Shown here in pieces: positions 1-22,179 of a stretch of 64,000 nt of DNA (the stretch's first letter is position 1; every line of letters starts with the position of its first letter). Both the position numbers and the translations under genes were made by a program. The notes under the pieces are model-generated. The model was given only the letters and a program-made list of their open reading frames with translations, made no database searches and had not been told where the DNA came from. The stretch is from an uncultured Gammaproteobacteria bacterium (lineage in GTDB: Bacteria > Patescibacteriota > Patescibacteriia > UBA1558 > S5-K13). The stretch is from contig CAYRHT010000001.1 of NCBI GenBank assembly GCA_964424195.1, forward strand, positions 6,102 through 70,101. Reading direction: 5' to 3'.

Positions 1-445
1 TTGCCACTCTCTGTTTTTCGCCTCCACTTAAATTATCAGCAGTTTCATCTATTTTATGTTTGAGCCCGACAAGCTCAACTATATTTTTAATCATCTCTTT
101 TTTATTTTCTTTTTTTATTTCGTTTCTGGGGTGAATTGCCAAATAAACATTATCAGAAACAGAAAGCGAAGGAATAATTTTAAAGTCTTGAAAAACAATA
201 CCGATATTCAAAAGGCGAAAACTGGCTAATTTTTCTTCATCAAAATCAGTAATATCTTGCCCCTCAAAAAAAATCTTTCCTTCGTCTGGTTTGACTAATC
301 CTGACAAAATAGAAAGCAGGGTAGTTTTTCCAGTTCCAGATTTTCCGATAATACTTACAAACTCTTTTTCTTTAATAAAAAAATCAAGATTTTTTAAAAT
401 TTGTTGCTTGCCGTATTTTTTAGATATTGATTGCAATTTAAGCAT
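1..445 (-). CDS. ABC transporter ATP-binding protein (N-terminal part; C-terminus cut by the window edge)
   Basis: The minus-strand translation starts MLKLQSISKKYGKQQILKNLDFFIKEKEFVSIIGKSGTGKTTLLSILSG..., which carries a Walker A motif (GKSGTGKTT). The reading frame stays open to position 1. The + strand ORF 291..479 is antisense to it. Confidence 0.75.
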   Translation of the reverse strand, partial: MLKLQSISKKYGKQQILKNLDFFIKEKEFVSIIGKSGTGKTTLLSILSGLVKPDEGKIFFEGQDITDFDEEKLASFRLLNIGIVFQDFKIIPSLSVSDNVYLAIHPRNEIKKENKKEMIKNIVELVGLKHKIDETADNLSGGEKQRVA

Positions 446-446
446 A

Positions 447-722
447 TTATTTTTTATAAAGATTAATAATTCTTTTTAGATTTTTTATTTTTTCATCAGA
501 CACTTTTTTGCCAGACAAAAATTCATTCAAAACAAATCCTTCTAAAGTTTTGGATCGCAAAGTATCAAAAGATTTAGCAATGGAAGTTGTAAGTTGGGCA
601 ATTTCTCCGCAACACTTACCTTGCTCAAGATATTTTTTAAGTGTTTCAATTTGTCCCTGAATTCGGTTTAAATGATGAATATTTTTTTGTCGCCTTACTT
701 TTATATCTTCAGTGATTTTCAT
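447..722 (-). CDS. CsoR/RcnR/FrmR-family metal-sensing transcriptional repressor (DUF156)
   Basis: 91 aa. It contains the KNIHHLNRIQGQIETLKKYLEQGKCCGEIAQL region typical of CsoR-like four-helix-bundle repressors, with His and Cys metal ligands. Its stop is 2 nt from the ABC ATPase start, so the two are likely co-transcribed. Confidence 0.65.
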   Translation of the reverse strand: MKITEDIKVRRQKNIHHLNRIQGQIETLKKYLEQGKCCGEIAQLTTSIAKSFDTLRSKTLEGFVLNEFLSGKKVSDEKIKNLKRIINLYKK

Positions 723-745
723 AGTACAATTTAATTTTATAAAAT

Positions 746-762
746 ATACCCCTACCCCTATA
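746..762. promoter_or_regulatory. Poly-C/G direct-repeat candidate operator (TA-CCCC-TA-CCCC-TA) just upstream of the CsoR-like gene
   Basis: ATACCCCTACCCCTAT lies 25 bp upstream of the repressor start on the minus strand. CsoR/RcnR-type operators are G/C tracts flanked by AT-rich arms. Confidence 0.35.
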
Positions 763-975
763 TATTATAGCAAAAAAAATACGAAGTCAAATTTTATAAA
801 ATCGTTTTCGTAGCGTAGAGAAGAAAATATCTTGTTTCCTCTAAAATTTAAAAAACATTTTTTGCGTAGGTACGGAGCAAAAAATATCCGCTTATCCCCT
901 TTATAAATAAAAGAAAAAGAAATTTGAAAATTTTTTAAAACAATTGGGCGATAGCCCTAAAAAGAAAAGGAATAT

Positions 976-1120
976 TTCAGCTAACGTTTCGGCATATCTG
1001 AAGTTGCGTAGCAATTTGGGTGGAGGCTTTTGCAAAAAGCCGTAACCAGATATGCCGTGTTAGATGATGTAATTAAAAGTTTTTGTTTTGCGATAGCAAA
1101 ACATTATTTGGGGCTATTTT
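976..1120 (+). repeat. Structured intergenic repeat, copy 1: CTAAC box, 10-bp stem GGCATATCTG/CAGATATGCC, inner hairpin GGCTTTTGCAAAAAGCC, GTTAGAT box, tail ...TTTTGCGATAGCAAAA...TATTTGGGGCTATTTTTT
   Basis: Direct inspection. It shares about 80% identity with copies at 2471-2622 and 5049-5135. The outer stem is perfectly self-complementary. Confidence 0.8.
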
Positions 1121-2404
1121 TTAAATATTCGTTTTCTTCCATGTTTCTTCTGGGTCAGGCATTGCATTAAATTGGTCTACAAAATTATTGTACTGTTCTT
1201 CGGTGATGGTAATTTGTTTTGAGCCATCAGCAGAATAATAACTATATGTATTATCTGGATTTTGTTGTGCGGTTTCAATGATACGTTTTAACGGTTCTCT
1301 TTTTTCTCTATATCCAGAAGCATAATTTGCAACCCCATCAATATTATATCCATGATAATCTAAATTTCTGTCTGATTTCATTTTTTTATATTCATCTCTT
1401 TGTTGCAATGCCTGATAAAATCTTTTTGCGTCTTCTGTAGAGGCAAAATTAGCAACAAAACGGGTTGTTTCGCTGTCTGGTTTTAAATCAACTTGGTGTG
1501 TTTTTTGAACATCGAGATGTTTGAATGCGATAGGAATTTTTTCGCTTTTTGCTAATTCAAATGCTAGATCACGCAATTCTTCCATGTTATCCAGGGGGAT
1601 GTCAAAGTAAATTCTTTCTTTTCCCCATTCCAATTGACCAGATTCTTTTAATTTTTTAGCCGCCGCATTTCCATATTCATACCAAAAAACACCAATATCC
1701 GTTTCTCCATTTTTAATTTTAAAGTCCTCAAAATCTTTATCCTCCAAACCCTCATAGTTTTGTCGCGAATTTTGCTCGGGTGTTGTTAGGCTATCACCCT
1801 GAATTTCTTGTTTAGGAATGCCGAGCTCTTCACGAATGGTGTTTGCTTTTTCCTGGTCGTCAATCTTGCTCTTACTTTCTAAAACGTTAAAAGACAATCT
1901 TTGCGCTAGATTATTATAAACGCTTTTGTCTATATTTTTGGCAATATCAAAAGAGAATGGTTTTTCTGGATTATCTTTTTTAAAATCTTCATAGCTCGAT
2001 TTTAATTTTTGAAGCACAAAAGATTCTTCGGGTGATAAATCATCAATTTCTCTTTTCCCTTGAATGCACTCTGTTAAAATTTTTGCTGCATCTTTTTGAG
2101 CATCGGGAAATTTTGTTTTTTGCTCATCAGATAGACCGGAGTATTGCTGTTTTAATTTCTCATCTTTTTGTGCTTCTCGGTCTTGCTCTGCTTTTCTGAT
2201 TTCTTCTAGCGCATTTTGTCTTCTTTCTGTTTCCGATTTATTTTTAGCTTCATCAATATAAATTGGATTTTGCCAAAGCTCGTCTACTATTTCGCTCGGC
2301 ATTCCTTTATACTGCGGAGGAATAGTACTTTGTTTTTCTTCCATATTTTCTGTTGGATCAGCCTCTTGATTTAAATTGTTGTATTGTTGTTCTGGTGATT
2401 TCAT
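1121..2404 (-). CDS. Hypothetical acidic, K/E/D-rich protein (427 aa), a cassette-like ORF
   Basis: Long ORF with no recognisable motif. It is bounded on both sides by the inverted repeat GGGGCTATTTTTTAAATATTC, which overlaps the stop codon on one side and abuts the start codon on the other. Confidence 0.55.
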   Translation of the reverse strand: MKSPEQQYNNLNQEADPTENMEEKQSTIPPQYKGMPSEIVDELWQNPIYIDEAKNKSETERRQNALEEIRKAEQDREAQKDEKLKQQYSGLSDEQKTKFPDAQKDAAKILTECIQGKREIDDLSPEESFVLQKLKSSYEDFKKDNPEKPFSFDIAKNIDKSVYNNLAQRLSFNVLESKSKIDDQEKANTIREELGIPKQEIQGDSLTTPEQNSRQNYEGLEDKDFEDFKIKNGETDIGVFWYEYGNAAAKKLKESGQLEWGKERIYFDIPLDNMEELRDLAFELAKSEKIPIAFKHLDVQKTHQVDLKPDSETTRFVANFASTEDAKRFYQALQQRDEYKKMKSDRNLDYHGYNIDGVANYASGYREKREPLKRIIETAQQNPDNTYSYYSADGSKQITITEEQYNNFVDQFNAMPDPEETWKKTNI

Positions 2405-2470
2405 AAAGAATATTTAAAAAATAGCCCCAAATAATAAATTTTCGAAGAAAATTTAAAAACTTTTAATTAT

Positions 2471-2622
2471 TTCAGCTAACATTCGCGTGTATGAGAAGTT
2501 TGCGAAGCAAATTTGGGCGAAGGCTTTTGTAAAAAGCCGTAGCCTCATACACGCTGTTGTACGATGTAATGAAAAGTTTTAATTTTGCGATAGCAAAATA
2601 TTTGGGGCTATATTTTTTAATT
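2471..2622 (+). repeat. Structured intergenic repeat, copy 2: stem CGTGTATGAG/CTCATACACG, hairpin GGCTTTTGTAAAAAGCC, GTTGTAC box, tail with GCGATAGCAAAA and ATTTGGGGCTATATTTTTT
   Basis: Direct inspection. An inverted copy of the tail lies at 2405-2470, upstream of ORF 1121-2404. Confidence 0.8.
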
Positions 2623-2632
2623 TTTCCAATTT

Positions 2633-3721
2633 TTATAAATATAAATCTTTGTCTAAAAAACAAACCTTTGGTTGATTTTTTTCAAAATCCCATGAATGAA
2701 AAGAGCCACCTAAGCATTCATTCCAATAATCGCATTTTTTGCATTTTTCACAAGCAGTACGATTTTTGTCTCTAAAAAAATCAAATTTATTATTCCAAAT
2801 ATCTGAAAAAGAATCTTTTTTAATGTTTCCTTGTATAAGATTACTTTGTCTTGGAACATTCGGGCAAACAAAAATATCGCCATTATGGAGGATGCTTCCA
2901 ATATTAATTCCTGTTCCGCAGTAGAAAAAATTATTTCTTACTTCATCTTCAAAGTTATCGCCTAAAAAATGAGCGCACCCAAAGGTAATTTTTACTTTTG
3001 ATTTTTTCGCTCGCTTATTTTTCATAAATTGTAAAAATTTCGTAAATTGCTCTTTGTTAAGAAGAATGTCGTTATTACAAATAGCTCTTCCAATTGGATC
3101 TACATTTAAAAGACGCCAATCACTAATTCCTAAAGCAGAAAATGTGTCATACATTTCATCTAAAATATTAATATTATTTTTATGAACAGTTGTTGTAATT
3201 CGAAGTGGGTTTAAAAAATCAGCTTTTGCAAAAAGCCCAATAGCATTTATTGCTTTTTCATAAGCACCTTTTGTGTTGCGAAATTCATCATGAACCTCTC
3301 TGATTCCATCAATACTTATATCAATCGTTATCATGCCAGCATCTTTGGCTTTTTCAACAATTTCTTGAGTAACAAGTGAACCATTAGAAACCATTCCCCA
3401 TTGAAAACCGAGGGAATTGGCATATTTCATAACTTCAAAAAGATCTTTCCGCAAAAGAGGCTCGCCTCCTGTTATTGCTATAGTAATTTTTTTTGCATCA
3501 AAATTTTGAGCAATATCTAATAAAGCTTTTTTAATTTCTTCAGTGCTAATAACTTCAGTAAAAATATTTTCACCAGCACGACTTCCGCAGTGTTTACATT
3601 TAAAATTACAATTCAAAGTACACTCCCAAAAAAGATATTTGAGTTCATGGTTTTCTCGAAGGTACTCACGATGTGCTTGCCACATCTTTTGTCTCCCTAG
3701 TTTAAGAATTTTTTTTAGCAT
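2633..3721 (-). CDS. Radical SAM enzyme with C-terminal SPASM-type auxiliary Fe-S domain
   Basis: The CNFKCKHCGSRAG motif (CxxxCxxC) sits near the N-terminus. A Cys-rich C-terminus (CEKCKKCDYWNEC...) matches SPASM/twitch domains of peptide-modifying or anSME-like rSAM maturases. Confidence 0.75.
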   Translation of the reverse strand: MLKKILKLGRQKMWQAHREYLRENHELKYLFWECTLNCNFKCKHCGSRAGENIFTEVISTEEIKKALLDIAQNFDAKKITIAITGGEPLLRKDLFEVMKYANSLGFQWGMVSNGSLVTQEIVEKAKDAGMITIDISIDGIREVHDEFRNTKGAYEKAINAIGLFAKADFLNPLRITTTVHKNNINILDEMYDTFSALGISDWRLLNVDPIGRAICNNDILLNKEQFTKFLQFMKNKRAKKSKVKITFGCAHFLGDNFEDEVRNNFFYCGTGINIGSILHNGDIFVCPNVPRQSNLIQGNIKKDSFSDIWNNKFDFFRDKNRTACEKCKKCDYWNECLGGSFHSWDFEKNQPKVCFLDKDLYL

Positions 3722-3980
3722 TTTTTCTACTTCGTTTGATAAAAATAACTGTCCCGATAATTATAGCCAAAACAATTATTATGACCATAACAATTGGTGA
3801 AAGAATTACAGAAAGTATTCTTTCCCATAAGGTTGGCTCAGATATAAAACCAATACCATACTCCGGCATTGGCTCGATACCATAAAGCGTTTGCATTTGT
3901 GCAGACATCCCAGTCTGATTGAAAGCAAATGCCATAAATGAACCAAAAATATACAAGAATGTTTTTTTGATTTTTTTCAT
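3702..3980 (-). CDS. Small membrane-anchored peptide (92 aa) encoded immediately upstream of the rSAM-SPASM gene and overlapping it by 20 nt
   Basis: N-terminal hydrophobic signal-like segment, a central MPEYGIGFISEPTLWE segment, a C-terminal TM helix and a basic tail. Translationally coupled to the rSAM gene. Confidence 0.45.
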   Translation of the reverse strand: MKKIKKTFLYIFGSFMAFAFNQTGMSAQMQTLYGIEPMPEYGIGFISEPTLWERILSVILSPIVMVIIIVLAIIIGTVIFIKRSRKNAKKNS

Positions 3981-4007
3981 AGTTTTTTAGTTATTAATAA
4001 TAAAAAT

Positions 4008-4275
4008 TTAAAAATATAGCCCCAAATTAATTTCTGAAAGAAATTATAAAACTTTTCATTATTTCGTACAACGTCTCGGGATATGAGAAGTCCCGATGTT
4101 TTTATTTACTTTAACTTTATATTATCAAATTCCCTTCTTAAGGGGTAATTGTATTTTTAAATTATATTAGTAAATCGGGATTTGAGTGAAAGAAATATAG
4201 CGACCTTAAAACAATCTAATAGATGCTGTATTTCTAGAACCTCATATTCGGTGTTGTACGATGTAAATTTTTTAT
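4008..4275 (+). repeat. Structured intergenic repeat, copy 3 (disrupted)
   Basis: 4008-4063 is an inverted tail fragment (AAAAATATAGCCCCAAAT...). The 5' stem half CGGGATATGAG is at 4076-4090 and the 3' half CTCATATTCGG plus a GTTGTAC box is at 4240-4263. They are separated by ~145 bp of unrelated sequence, which contains another degenerate 5' half at 4187-4198. Confidence 0.6.
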
Positions 4276-4324
4276 TTTAATTTTAATCAAGCTATACTTT
4301 GTTTATCAAAAAAAAATTGATTTT

Positions 4325-4957
4325 TTATTTTTTATCTTGTTCATTTACTTCATTTAAAATATGTTTTGTAAGTTCATTTGCTCTAATTATTTTTATGTCA
4401 GGAAACATTTTTCTTAGTTCATCCACTAAAGGATATAATCTCGTATTAACTACTATTACTCCAATGTTTGCTTCCCATGCCAATCTTTCTCCATTTTGAT
4501 TACTACCTATTATTGTACCCTTTCCAATTTTATTGCCTTTAATTTTATGAAAAATAGACTTATCTTTATTTAAAGATTGATTGTATGGAGAAAGAATTAA
4601 AAATGAACCCATAGTATAACTTCTACATTGACTTGTTTTTAGCTTTCCTTTCCACCCCATTATGGTTTTATTCTGAGCAATATTTATTGCTGCTGCTAGT
4701 TGTTCAATTTCACTATTTCTAGTTATGCCATGACCCTCATATTTTTTGAGTATATCTTCAGGAAGTAAGTTGACAAATTTTGCTATAGCTTCTTTTTCAC
4801 CAAAAACTTCATCCATTTCTTCATTATCACATTGTTCATTTTGAATTCTTTCTTTATATTTTTCAAGAAGCTTAGTAGCTAATTCAAATGACTCATTGTA
4901 TGGAGCGAATTTTTGTTGTTCATTTTTATTTTGTTTTTCAAAAGAGTATTTTTCCAT
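4325..4957 (-). CDS. Hypothetical protein (210 aa)
   Basis: Long ORF. A weak HKIKGNKIGKGTIIGSNQN segment resembles, but does not strictly match, the PLD-superfamily HxK(x)4D...GSxN motif. Confidence 0.45.
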   Translation of the reverse strand: MEKYSFEKQNKNEQQKFAPYNESFELATKLLEKYKERIQNEQCDNEEMDEVFGEKEAIAKFVNLLPEDILKKYEGHGITRNSEIEQLAAAINIAQNKTIMGWKGKLKTSQCRSYTMGSFLILSPYNQSLNKDKSIFHKIKGNKIGKGTIIGSNQNGERLAWEANIGVIVVNTRLYPLVDELRKMFPDIKIIRANELTKHILNEVNEQDKK

Positions 4958-5048
4958 AATTTTAAAATTTTCTTAAAAATTAATAAAAAATCAAATTTTT
5001 TCATGTTTAATTCTACAAATTAGAATTATTATAAATAAAATTTATTTT

Positions 5049-5190
5049 GTATAACGTTCGCGGATATGAGAAGTTGCGAAGCAATTTAGGTTGAGGCTCT
5101 GCAAGAGCCGAACCTCATATCCGCTGTTAGGCGAGGGTGAGCGACCAACGGGAGCGAAAGTGCAATGTCCCCTTGAGTTGCCACCTGAAA
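5049..5190 (+). repeat. Structured intergenic repeat, copy 4: stem GCGGATATGAG/CTCATATCCGC, hairpin GGCTCTGCAAGAGCC, core GTTAGGC, followed by a unique GC-rich tail
   Basis: Direct inspection. The GTTAGGC heptamer at 5126-5132 matches the integron core-site consensus GTTRRRY. Confidence 0.75.
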
Positions 5191-5243
5191 ATTTATTCCA
5201 TTTCTTTGAATTTTGAGAAAAACATTTGTAAAATTTTTCTTAA

Positions 5244-5738
5244 CTATTGAGTAATTTCTAAAATAAGCTTTTTAAAATGTGGGTAGTAAATCCTACCCCA
5301 AATAGGATTCTTTTCAAAATAACTCACTTCATTTGTAGAAGAATTGATAGTAACGGGAATAGTGAACCCCGCCCATTTCTTACCTGATTTTAACATTTTG
5401 CAATACTCTTTTGCGTCAGGAGTGATATTGTTTGAAATTAATACTGATATTACACCAACGCCTGATTGCAAGCCTCTTGGCCAACCATTATAATTACTGC
5501 TTGCGAAAGTAAATGCTTCAGACAAATGTTTTTCTATTAAATCAATAGTTATATTTTCGTTGCCAAAATCAGAAACAACAATAAATGTGTTCAACTGTGT
5601 AGCAAACCAGCTCCATTTAAACTTTTTTTCATAACCAATCACACTTGGTTTTCCAAGTATTTTTTCATCCTTTAGAAAAATTGATTTGGAATTAAGTTTT
5701 TCCTTAATCAAGTTTATGTTCATGTTTTTATTCTCCAT
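5244..5738 (-). CDS. Hypothetical protein (164 aa), recombinase-proximal cassette-like ORF
   Basis: ORF with no recognisable motif. Confidence 0.45.
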   Translation of the reverse strand: MENKNMNINLIKEKLNSKSIFLKDEKILGKPSVIGYEKKFKWSWFATQLNTFIVVSDFGNENITIDLIEKHLSEAFTFASSNYNGWPRGLQSGVGVISVLISNNITPDAKEYCKMLKSGKKWAGFTIPVTINSSTNEVSYFEKNPIWGRIYYPHFKKLILEITQ

Positions 5739-5832
5739 AATTATTTTAGTTAAATAATAATAATAAGTTTAATTGTATATAAATCTTTTCAAAATTCAAA
5801 GTGTTGTCTTCAAATTTTCAGATGGCAATTTC

Positions 5833-5839
5833 GCCTAAC
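5833..5839 (-). promoter_or_regulatory. GTTAGGC heptamer (minus strand) 78 bp upstream of the recombinase gene, a candidate attI-like crossover core
   Basis: It is identical to the R'-like box of repeat copy 4 at 5126-5132. It lies between the divergent recombinase gene and the first cassette-like ORF. Confidence 0.3.
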
Positions 5840-5916
5840 TCCTTATATACGAAGTTATTGACTTTTAGGTTTGAATGAACTAAGTTTTAGATGATAATTA
5901 ATAACCATAAATCATT

Positions 5917-6753
5917 ATGAAAAGCGATTTAAATGGTTCAGATCTTATTCTTAGGTTTGAGCAAGAAATGAAAATTAGAAATTTTAGTCCCAGAACAATT
6001 AAGTCCTATAGCTATTATATAACAGAAATCTTAAAATATACAAGGAAAAGTGCTCGAGATATTAATTCTCAAGATTTAAAAAACTATTTAGAATATTTAG
6101 TTGATCAAAATAAGTCTGGGTCAACTTTAAATATAGCTTATAGTGCTTTAAAACTATATTTTGGGAAGATTCTTCATCGGAGATTCTTTATTTTTTTACC
6201 TAGAGCCCAAACAGAGAAGAGATTGCCCGTGGTTTTAAGTAAAAAAGAAATAAAGAGAATTTTAGAAGGTATTGTGAATAGGAAACATAAATTAATTATT
6301 AGCTTGATTTATTCTTCCGGTTTAAGAGTTTCAGAAGTGGTGAAAATTAAAGTTCAAGATTTGAATTTTGAAAATAATACTCTTTTTATTAAACAATCAA
6401 AAGGTCAGAAAGATAGAATAACAATCTTTGCTAAAAAGTTAGGGATAGAGTTGAAAAAGTATATTAAAGATGGAAATGTGCAAGGAATTCTTTTTAAGAG
6501 TAATCAAAGTAGATTGTTAACAACAAGAACAGTCCAAAAAATATTTTCTCAGGCTTTAGAGAGTGCCGGAATAAGTAAAAAAGCTTCTTGTCATTCTTTA
6601 AGGCATTCTTTTGCTACTCATTTATTAGAAAATGGTACTAATCTTCGATATATTCAAAAATTATTAGGTCATCAAAAATTAGAAACTACTCAAATATATA
6701 CTCAAGTAGCTAGTAATAAATTAAAAGATATCAAAAATCCTTTAGATTTTTAA
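5917..6753 (+). CDS. Tyrosine site-specific recombinase (Xer/phage-integrase family, 278 aa)
   Basis: The C-terminal catalytic region HSLRHSFATHLLENGTNLRYIQKLLGHQKLETTQIYTQV contains the R..H..R..Y motif set. The protein is short, similar in size to XerC/D, and lacks the extra domain seen in classical IntI. Confidence 0.85.
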   Translation: MKSDLNGSDLILRFEQEMKIRNFSPRTIKSYSYYITEILKYTRKSARDINSQDLKNYLEYLVDQNKSGSTLNIAYSALKLYFGKILHRRFFIFLPRAQTEKRLPVVLSKKEIKRILEGIVNRKHKLIISLIYSSGLRVSEVVKIKVQDLNFENNTLFIKQSKGQKDRITIFAKKLGIELKKYIKDGNVQGILFKSNQSRLLTTRTVQKIFSQALESAGISKKASCHSLRHSFATHLLENGTNLRYIQKLLGHQKLETTQIYTQVASNKLKDIKNPLDF

Positions 6754-7186: not shown

Positions 7187-7275
7187 GCCAGAGTGGCGGA
7201 ACTGGTAGACGCGCAGGCTTGAGGGGCCTGTGAGAAATTTTTCTCGTGGAGGTTCAAGTCCTCTCTCTGGCACCA
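7187..7275 (+). tRNA. tRNA-Leu(GAG), long variable arm, CCA encoded
   Basis: Hand-folded cloverleaf. Anticodon loop CTTGAGGG gives GAG. Confidence 0.75.
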
Positions 7276-7284
7276 CATTGACAA

Positions 7285-7361
7285 GGGTCCTTGGCTCAGT
7301 TGGTTAGAGCGTCTCGTTTACACCGAGAAGGTCATAGGTTCGACTCCTATAGGACCCACCA
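7285..7361 (+). tRNA. tRNA-Val(TAC)
   Basis: GGGTCCT acceptor stem, anticodon loop TTTACAC, TTCGACT T-loop, CCA encoded. Confidence 0.8.
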
Positions 7362-7376
7362 TAAATTTCCCATTAA

Positions 7377-7453
7377 GGGCCTGTAGCTCAGTTGGCTAGA
7401 GCACCTGCTTTGCAAGCAGGGGGTCAAGGGTTCGAATCCCTTCAGGTCCACCA
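7377..7453 (+). tRNA. tRNA-Ala(TGC)
   Basis: GGGCCTG acceptor stem with a G3:T70-like pair, anticodon loop TTTGCAA, CCA encoded. Confidence 0.8.
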
Positions 7454-20043: not shown

Positions 20044-20221
20044 TATATCTACCTGTTGATAAATATAAAAAATCGCTTATGTTTTTATAGTTTATTTCTC
20101 AGGTTGAAAATATAAATTCGTTTTTTGACAATTAAATAGTGATAGAAACACATGCGTCTTATATTTATTTATAAGATTCAATTCTAATTTTTTGAATATT
20201 TTTTATAAAAAATATTCCATT

Positions 20222-21713
<1,492 letters not shown>

Positions 21714-21918: not shown

Positions 21919-21995
21919 GGGCGCATAGCTCAGTTGGTTAGAGCGCTACACTGATAATGTAGAGGTCCCAAGTTCAACTCTTGGTGCGCCCACCA
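21919..21995 (+). tRNA. tRNA-Ile(GAT)
   Basis: Anticodon loop CTGATAA. In the ITS position downstream of 16S. Confidence 0.85.
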
Positions 21996-22020
21996 ATAGT
22001 AGATAAGTTTATTATATTAT

Positions 22021-22095
22021 GCCGCGGTAGCTCAGTGGTAGAGCAGAGGATTGAAAATCCTCGTGTCGGTGGTTCAATTCCGCCCCGCGGCACCA
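22021..22095 (+). tRNA. tRNA-Phe(GAA)
   Basis: GCCGCGG acceptor, anticodon loop TTGAAAA, CCA encoded. Confidence 0.85.
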
Positions 22096-22102
22096 AATAT
22101 TT

Positions 22103-22179
22103 CGGGGTGTGGCGCAGTTGGCTAGCGCGCGTCGTTTGGGACGATGAGGTCGGAGGTTCGAGTCCTCTCACCCCGACCA
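22103..22179 (+). tRNA. tRNA-Pro(TGG)
   Basis: CGGGGTG acceptor, anticodon loop TTTGGGA, CCA encoded. Confidence 0.8.

Follow-up and report, generated by a model that had tools for sequence, protein, structure and literature searches.

Inverted repeats around genes of a Patescibacteria chromosome probably represent the ends of cassettes in an integron-like array

In an integron, a recombinase gene stands beside the attI site and diverges from an array of co-oriented cassettes, which carry accessory or defence genes and genes that are mostly of unknown function; each cassette ends in an imperfect palindrome (attC) with AAC and GTT boxes, the junction lies at G|TT, and there is complementarity between a cassette's 5' end and the inverse box of that cassette. 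Cassettes without an open reading frame (ORF) occur, array content varies between strains, and folding is biased to the antisense strand. All of these features, with the closest likeness being to sedentary chromosomal integrons, are shared by a locus in a 64 kb stretch of DNA (here called the window; contig CAYRHT010000001.1, positions 6,102 to 70,101), where 1–5856 holds the proximal part of the array. The locus was first noticed because of inverted repeats (IRs) that bracket two of its genes, and we consider it probable that both IR pairs are the complementary ends of cassettes c4 (985–2479) and c3 (2480–4071) in an integron-like array of a Patescibacteria chromosome.

Other described systems resemble this locus in part. 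It shares with Xer/dif systems (XerA, XerH, XerS) and with their 'Cand' subgroup the architecture and length of the protein, which passes the XerA_Arch cutoff, and its attI looks like a two-arm double-strand core, but there is one dif per chromosome in those systems, whereas here attI heads an array of swappable gene units, with dozens of structured sites, beside the recombinase gene. The pdif modules of Acinetobacter plasmids are likewise discrete gene modules bounded by Xer-type recombinase sites; those are inverted 28-bp XerC/D sites scattered on plasmids, while the sites described here are co-oriented, hairpin-forming and collected in one array, and to our knowledge pdif modules have no adjacent dedicated recombinase. 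As for integrons proper, an additional domain specific to IntI is the defining trait of their integrases, and this insertion is considered necessary for attC recombination (PMC4889954, PMC9668308). Very small genomes were reported to lack integrons, and surveys based on IntegronFinder require the IntI domain (PMC4889954), while the host here is a Candidate Phyla Radiation (CPR) bacterium with a genome of ~1 Mb. The system would work like an integron, yet its recombinase lacks the trait that defines integron integrases and its sites depart from canonical attC geometry; full-text searches of a limited literature collection found no description of such arrays in CPR/Patescibacteria.

The initial annotation had reported that ORF 1121–2404 is bounded by a perfect 21-bp IR, and a repeat search does find this ORF bracketed by two arms of 31 nt that are 97% complementary (Table 1). 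The perfect repeat is real, although it was placed one base off: the exact 21-mer GGGGCTATTTTTTAAATATTC lies at 1110–1130 (not 1111–1131), and its reverse complement at 2408–2428 (not 2407–2427). As had been stated, the first copy overlaps the TAA stop codon of this minus-strand ORF (TTA at 1121–1123), while at the other end it is the extended arm that abuts the ATG (CAT at 2402–2404), the exact 21-mer being 3 nt away from it and not 2. The second cassette is bracketed likewise, with arms of 26 nt and 96% complementarity, and the similarity of about 65 bp that had been noted when the tails are included corresponds to a complementarity of 62–72 nt once a replaced internal hairpin is allowed. 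In local alignments of the 5' flank with the 3' flank, the tails scored 52 for c4 and 74 for c3, where the maxima for shuffled sequences were 27 and 29, respectively. The sequence GGGGCTATNTTTTT, allowing at most one mismatch, occurs 4 times in the 64 kb (0.21 expected), and none of 100 shuffles reached 4. Other cassettes of the array (c1 and c5, and c2 weakly) show the same feature.

These IRs form the outermost stretch of a more extensive complementarity between both ends of one cassette, which runs from the boxes to the start and stop codons. They belong to discrete, ORF-containing mobile units, as the earlier picture of a tiny mobile cassette implied, but they are not terminal repeats of the transposon type, nor do they mark the precise boundaries of the cassettes; the true borders are 60–75 nt farther out, at the G|TT of attC-like sites. 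With the junction placed after the G of GTT, integron-style, a cassette extends from the base that follows this G in one site up to and including the G of the site after it. Because the borders lie at G|TT, the variable NNNN and the distal 5' sequence complement the cassette's own 3' end and not that of the neighbour. Over nine cassettes, the AAC-terminated 9-mer at a cassette's 3' end pairs with the 5' end of that cassette at 75/81 positions (perfectly, 9/9, in five of the nine), compared with 55/81 for the in-array GTT box, and none of 20,000 random assignments of partners reached the own-end score. The same rule holds in independent loci (7.7 vs 6.0 of 9 positions, n = 26, p = 1.8e-4). As examples, the 5' end of c1, GTTAGGCGA, which lies at the attI junction (5839/5838), forms 9/9 pairs with TCGCCTAAC, the R'' box that c1 has in site D; the ends of c3, GTTGTACGA and TCGTACAAC, pair 9/9, while the in-array partner gives only 5/9; and the ends of c5 pair 9/9 and add a perfect IR of 31 nt, across 4.1 kb. 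Such own-end pairing is the classical argument for cassettes as circularisable units.

Past the boxes there is a conserved 2-nt mismatch (GAAAT vs ACATC), followed by an inner stem AATKAAAAGTTTT, then by an opposed pair of local hairpins and an outer stem ATTTGGGGCTATWTTTTT..., which reaches the start and stop codons and is the IR first noticed. In this the locus differs from integrons, as its complementarity runs 25–150+ nt past the boxes, to the ORF. In the matrix of 5'-flank by 3'-flank scores the diagonal is highest for c1, c3 and c4 (the tail score of c1 being 41, with a shuffle maximum of 33); c3 and c4 have tails of a common family that differ by covarying substitutions, and c7, which encodes GmrSD, has more than 70 inter-end pairs. 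Joining the ends in silico gives hairpins of 99–488 nt, and in 7/9 cassettes the folding energy per nucleotide is more favourable for the end-joined than for the in-array junction, the exceptions being c2 and c9, which have weak tails. For c4, the end-joined junction reaches −62.5 kcal/mol (z = −13.5), compared with z = −4.3 for the spacer as it stands in the array. In all nine cassettes the fold of the bottom (antisense) strand is more stable than that of the top strand, and the minimum-energy folds contain 42 G·T pairs on the bottom strand and 8 on the top strand, where composition-matched shuffles give 28.3±4.4 and 16.2±3.3, respectively; in the top-strand fold, 14/29 single mismatches are A·C. 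Between two copies of c4, both one-sided tail substitutions are G·T on the bottom strand, and one local hairpin has T·A changed to C·G. The wobble pairs and the strand bias therefore favour folded bottom-strand DNA over pairing in the mRNA.

The sites themselves are imperfect palindromes in which structure rather than sequence is conserved. On the ORF-sense strand they read ACATC-NNNNAAC-A-[11-12 bp stem]-GTTC-[hairpin]-CTCCACCCAAAT-[hairpin]-ACTTC-[stem]-RAAC-GTT-NNNN-GAAAT, with only AAC and GTT invariant. This is not the canonical attC geometry: the boxes are NNNNAAC/GTTNNNN and not RYYYAAC/GTTRRRY, an internal loop of 1 x 4-5 nt takes the place of the 5–6 nt unpaired central spacers and extrahelical bases, single-stranded motifs (CCCAAAT, ACTTC, ACATC and GAAAT) are conserved, and the length is 73–194 nt instead of 57–141 nt. 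RNAalifold on the four window sites gave six stem pairs with compensatory changes, and a covariance model built from these four sites (CM R1) gave four matches and no more in the 64 kb, each of them on the minus strand (975–1071, 2470–2568, 4062–4265 and 5045–5138). Over a set of 40 sites drawn from 7 loci, pairing in the stems amounts to 92.6% (59% when shuffled and ~40% in slid controls), with 244 double-sided changes where 77 are expected. Among the matches listed, the model found 53 sites in 14 loci, and all 53 lie on the array side of the recombinase gene and on the same strand; there are none in the rest of the window or in the downstream flanks. Rfam has no match in the sites, either at the gathering threshold or at E <= 1.

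Some variation in the sites and their tails was seen. In what follows L001 is the window, L014 the genome to which it belongs, and L002/L015 another assembly of the same organism. Site C and site F (L014 14247–14430) have an extra AT-rich stretch of ~100 nt in hairpin 2 and keep the rest of the architecture (for site C, its agreement with the other sites was judged by eye); gene callers put an 80-aa ORF over part of site F. A conserved GC-rich module, CTCAAGGGG...GCTCACCC, immediately precedes the R'' box within the first cassette's 3' tail (window 5133–5175; L008 ~250–340), and it is shared by two lineages that otherwise carry unrelated cassettes. A sub-threshold Rfam match to 23S-methyl at 2666–2769 (+) (34 bits, gathering threshold 50, E 0.012) falls within the radical SAM ORF but on the other strand from it, and it is probably due to chance.

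The recombinase passes the NCBIfam model XerA_Arch ('site-specific tyrosine recombinase/integron integrase') with 240.6 bits (cutoff 220), while the integron integrase model TIGR02249 is matched in two stretches with 208 bits, which is under its cutoff of 265. Its best PDB match is the V. cholerae integron integrase VchIntIA 2a3v (E 2e-44), with XerA next (6.6e-40). In the alignment with 2a3v, residues 183–204 of the query stand opposite IntI4 181–245, so ~43 aa are missing; the window recombinase thus lacks the IntI-specific domain near patch III (intI_Cterm / I2 helix), a region of ~40–60 aa that defines integron integrases. At the head of the array a conserved site, which by its sequence we infer to function as attI, has the 11-8-11 lox-like core AACTTCGTATA-TAAGGAGT-TAGGCGAAATT on the minus strand, with the junction to the first cassette (G|TT) between 5839 and 5838. 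The consensus TCAAyaAsTTCGtATATAAgGAG|TT is present in 6 loci with recombinases 57–100% identical, and divergence begins directly after it. The left arm (5844–5856, minus strand), ATAACTTCGTATA, is identical to the 13-bp loxP arm, and a Cre-like bottom-strand cut one base into the 8-bp spacer coincides with the inferred G|TT junction. Related loci have 1–4 differences in this arm (AyAAsTTCGTATA), Cre is absent from the sequence relatives of the recombinase at E <= 1e-5, and, unlike in Cre/loxP, the right arm of attI is supplied by the cassette.

Recombinases 57–90% identical to that of the window come from Patescibacteria (named in the sources Moranbacteria, Parcubacteria and Falkowbacteria), and the same layout recurs in these relatives across five different downstream housekeeping contexts. 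In a metagenome scan, at least 7 more loci with sites were found among the matches listed, with recombinases down to 40–58% identity, and 13/13 of their CM matches are upstream and co-oriented; the 80 loci listed from that scan had mostly distant recombinases (33–44% identity) without sites, while the closest ones and one at 40% had sites. When the window recombinase protein was compared with genome contigs, the sole match was an unrelated Desulfobacterales locus at 30% identity.

Evidence for movement comes from units found at several positions. In related genomes, an ORF-less cassette of 181 bp occurs in 8 copies in L019 (388–9922) and once in L020 (2625–2805), always as G|TTCAGC...GCGCG|TT with varied neighbours, and one copy stands directly at attI. 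L019 and L020 have an identical recombinase and attI, and L020 is without 9.35 kb of the array. The product of c4 (427 aa) has a 92%-identical protein in L022 and L023, where the neighbours are different; the cassette copy is 90% identical in nucleotides, and the homology runs from just after G|TTNNNN to the G|TT of its own site. A comparison of L006/L007 with L008, which appeared from the gene calls to be strain variants, was discarded, because the sequences are 99.96% identical and only the ORF calling differs. The 181-bp unit consists of a tail hairpin and a site core, alternates with ORF-bearing cassettes over most of the ~10 kb L019 array, and looks like an empty cassette form or a selfish mini-cassette.

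To hypothesize on the mechanism, the recombinase would release a cassette as a circle through exchange between two successive sites, and the joined ends of the circle would form a single hairpin or cruciform of 200–490 nt; the ORF would occupy the loop on one side of this structure, and the attC core would lie at its opposite end. The folded site, probably of the antisense ('bottom') strand, would then recombine with attI, being cleaved at AA|C. Long tails could ease folding or extrusion from AT-rich DNA, and they may thereby compensate, wholly or in part, for the lack of the IntI domain by which extrahelical bases are read.

Several observations weigh against cassettes moved in this way. As the recombinase is without the IntI insertion, folded-strand recombination by it remains a proposal, and this recombinase family has been counted as the housekeeping Xer of candidate phyla, whose enzymes are classified as Xer replacements (PMC8138268). 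Since GTT is invariant, the crossover can be placed only to within (A)ACGTT. Base composition explains part of the G·T asymmetry, and c2 has only a 20-nt, 95% IR (4310–4329 / 4982–5001), its overall flank score not being significant against shuffles. The difference between L019 and L020 is explicable by homologous recombination between the identical 181-bp repeats. The c4 copies differ in the NNNN of the 5' box (AGCT vs ATAT), and in L023 (1470–1560, compared with window 985–1065 and 2474–2562) both 11-bp arms of the L stem are replaced by the version of site B, with 8 compensatory differences and the flanking 75 nt identical; these two points count because a simple single-crossover model predicts neither, and site cores seem to be exchanged as modules. 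Lastly, no cassette reordering was found in the window's own population, where every contig recovered (with recombinase, c4 and CsoR look-ups) had the same order.

Some of these points also bear on the strongest alternative, which we nevertheless regard as unlikely, namely that the cassettes are the same but are exchanged as double-stranded DNA in the Xer/Cre manner, at a core such as [L' arm]-AACGTT-[NNNNGAAAT arm], the palindromes being by-products or cruciform aids. The XerA architecture without the I2 region, an attI that resembles an ordinary 11-8-11 double-strand core, and AACGTT as a conserved palindromic hexamer at the junction would all be expected of it, and the NNNN difference of the c4 copies could be the overlap region. 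However, the putative arms (L stems and NNNN) vary freely and yet covary with their hairpin partners, and therefore recognition of shape rather than of sequence is suggested, while the strand asymmetry of the wobble pairs argues for one folded strand.

It seems quite improbable that the IRs act at the RNA level by pairing the 5' and 3' untranslated regions, a pairing that the initial annotation had linked to RNase III sites or circularisation; on this reading the stems would serve RNase III processing of a polycistronic transcript, or would stabilise or circularise the mRNA, and the recombination sites would be incidental. The IRs do abut start codons and overlap stop codons, ordinary terminators are absent between the genes, and the tail hairpins have compensatory changes between cassette copies, which RNA or DNA folding explains equally. 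RNase III stems flanking rRNAs or phage genes also bracket a gene by long-range complementarity, but the wobble asymmetry here favours the non-transcribed strand: the imperfections are G·T on the antisense strand, hence C·A in the mRNA, at a ratio (42 vs 8) beyond the composition control, and the greater stability of the antisense strand is without exception. For these two reasons RNA pairing is disfavoured as the primary cause. Furthermore, the complementarity is continuous with the AAC/GTT boxes, for which the own-cassette rule is a recombination signature, ORF-less cassettes retain the same stem, and Rfam offers no matching family.

Less probable still is that the recombinase is only a chromosome-dimer resolvase (Xer) and that its adjacency to a variable island is coincidental or the relic of an extinct system. 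The housekeeping role assumed for the 'Cand' subgroup speaks for it, as does an FtsK encoded nearby in two loci; against it, adjacency and divergent orientation hold in the 14 loci among the matches listed, which span five downstream housekeeping contexts with recombinases 40–100% identical to the query, the attI consensus is kept in 6 loci, and the presence of near-identical units at many positions points to recent activity.

Generic palindromic intergenic repeats of the miniature inverted-repeat transposable element (MITE), repetitive extragenic palindromic (REP) or Correia kind, spread between genes so that the IRs are adjacent copies, are hardly credible, for although region 2405–2632 is itself a 228-bp near-palindrome and the tails of c3 and c4 are homologous, no member of the site family lies in the remaining 58 kb of the window or in any downstream flank, the sites of the array are always co-oriented and beside a recombinase, each tail is a better match to the opposite end of its own cassette than to the second arm of the palindrome in which it lies, and the units have exact G|TT borders, one of them at attI. 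The tails are cassette-specific, and not the repeat found regardless of ORF boundaries that the initial annotation had named as the outcome contradicting it. Retrons, riboswitches, group I/II introns and CRISPR-like elements were also considered and rejected, because every cassette is followed by a site irrespective of the genes it carries, neither a reverse transcriptase nor cas genes were seen among the array genes, and Rfam has no match.

The features of the window are collected in Table 1. Genes at 1–5738 are all on the minus strand, with spacers of 230–400 bp; no ordinary terminators were found between the array genes, and a promoter scan gave 31 matches where 27 were expected, which says little about Pc or cassette promoters. 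In a 952 kb metagenome contig of the same genome the array continues, with attI followed by sites D, C, B, A, E, F, G, H and I, and comprises ~14.4 kb and 9–10 co-oriented cassettes, ending at convergent genes. The cargo includes four proteins of unknown function, a small membrane protein together with a radical SAM/SPASM enzyme, a Cys-rich protein of 91 aa, a GmrSD restriction enzyme, a DUF4395 protein and, in a five-gene cassette, a CsoR-like repressor with a MacB-type ABC exporter operon. Cargo of the defence type is seen in GmrSD (L014 14622–16664, the window's genome), and in cassettes of the relative L017 (980–6407) with SLFN/AlbA_2, DEAD/ResIII helicase, N6_N4 methyltransferase and T5orf172 proteins.

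Elsewhere in the window, a 16S rRNA gene (20220–21712) is followed by three tRNA genes (21919–22176), and no 23S rRNA match was found anywhere in the 64 kb; therefore, the rRNA genes appear to be unlinked. A tRNA cluster (7187–7450) lies between rplS and position ~7500, from where the window differs from L002/L015; in these, rplS is followed by a 132-aa ORF, TrmB, a 1582-aa Peptidase_S74 protein and Fic. The difference downstream of rplS may reflect an island or a prophage close to those tRNA genes, or else a join made in assembly.

Table 1. Features of the array and the recombinase locus (positions in the window).
Feature	Position	Strand	Details
IR arm 1 of c4	1103-1133		distal 3' tail, overlaps stop codon
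IR arm 2 of c4	2405-2435		distal 5' tail, abuts ATG
IR arm 1 of c3	2600-2625		3' tail
IR arm 2 of c3	4002-4027		5' tail
attC-like site A	979-1065	-	87 nt; 3' end of c4; CM R1 112.9 bits
attC-like site B	2474-2562	-	89 nt; 3' end of c3; CM R1 106.9 bits; covarying L stem
attC-like site C	4066-4259	-	194 nt, long insert in hairpin 2; 3' end of c2; CM R1 32.1 bits, E 5e-5
attC-like site D	5049-5132	-	84 nt; 3' end of c1; CM R1 96.7 bits
Putative attI	5827-5856	-	11-8-11 lox-like core
Tyrosine recombinase	5917-6753	+	278 aa, divergent from array; Pfam PF00589 + PF13495
Cassette c1	5055-5838	-	784 bp; ORF 5244-5738 (164 aa, unknown function); tails 5739-5838, 5133-5243
Cassette c2	4072-5054	-	983 bp; ORF 4325-4957 (210 aa, unknown function)
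Cassette c3	2480-4071	-	1592 bp; tails 3981-4071, 2563-2632; plus site B
c3 gene, membrane protein	3702-3980	-	92 aa; family searches
c3 gene, radical SAM/SPASM protein	2633-3721	-	family searches
Cassette c4	985-2479	-	1495 bp; 5' tail 2405-2479, 3' tail 1066-1120, plus site A
c4 ORF	1121-2404	-	427 aa, no known family
Cassette c5 (start)	1-984	-	full cassette 4.1 kb, five genes, in metagenome contig
c5 gene, CsoR-like repressor	447-722	-	
c5 gene, ABC ATPase	1-445	-	
c5 genes beyond window			147-aa protein, MacB_PCD protein, FtsX protein, in that order

As the textbook platform for gene capture, integrons pose the question of where they and their cassettes came from, and of how double-strand Xer recombination gave way to the recombination of folded single strands. 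We suggest tentatively, and with some reservation, that the arrays may form an unrecognised, CPR-wide class of integrons whose IntI/XerA-type recombinase never had the I2 region or lost it, and which would represent either a surviving pre-I2 stage in the evolution of integrons or an independent invention of gene capture by folded DNA. Their cassettes would then be, in essence, small palindromic elements that hold an ORF in a hairpin loop, with the 181-bp unit as the empty form. If this is true, the arrays would offer an experimentally tractable intermediate or parallel case, with the anatomy of an integron but without the domain thought indispensable, and with cassettes in which all of the non-coding sequence makes up one long palindrome, and the empty 181-bp form would suggest a concrete route for the birth of cassettes. 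Thousands of 'XerC/XerD/integron integrase' annotations in Patescibacteria would need rereading, and the ultra-small CPR genomes, which were thought to be integron-free, would be seen to keep a dedicated site for the exchange of accessory genes, including those for defence and transport.

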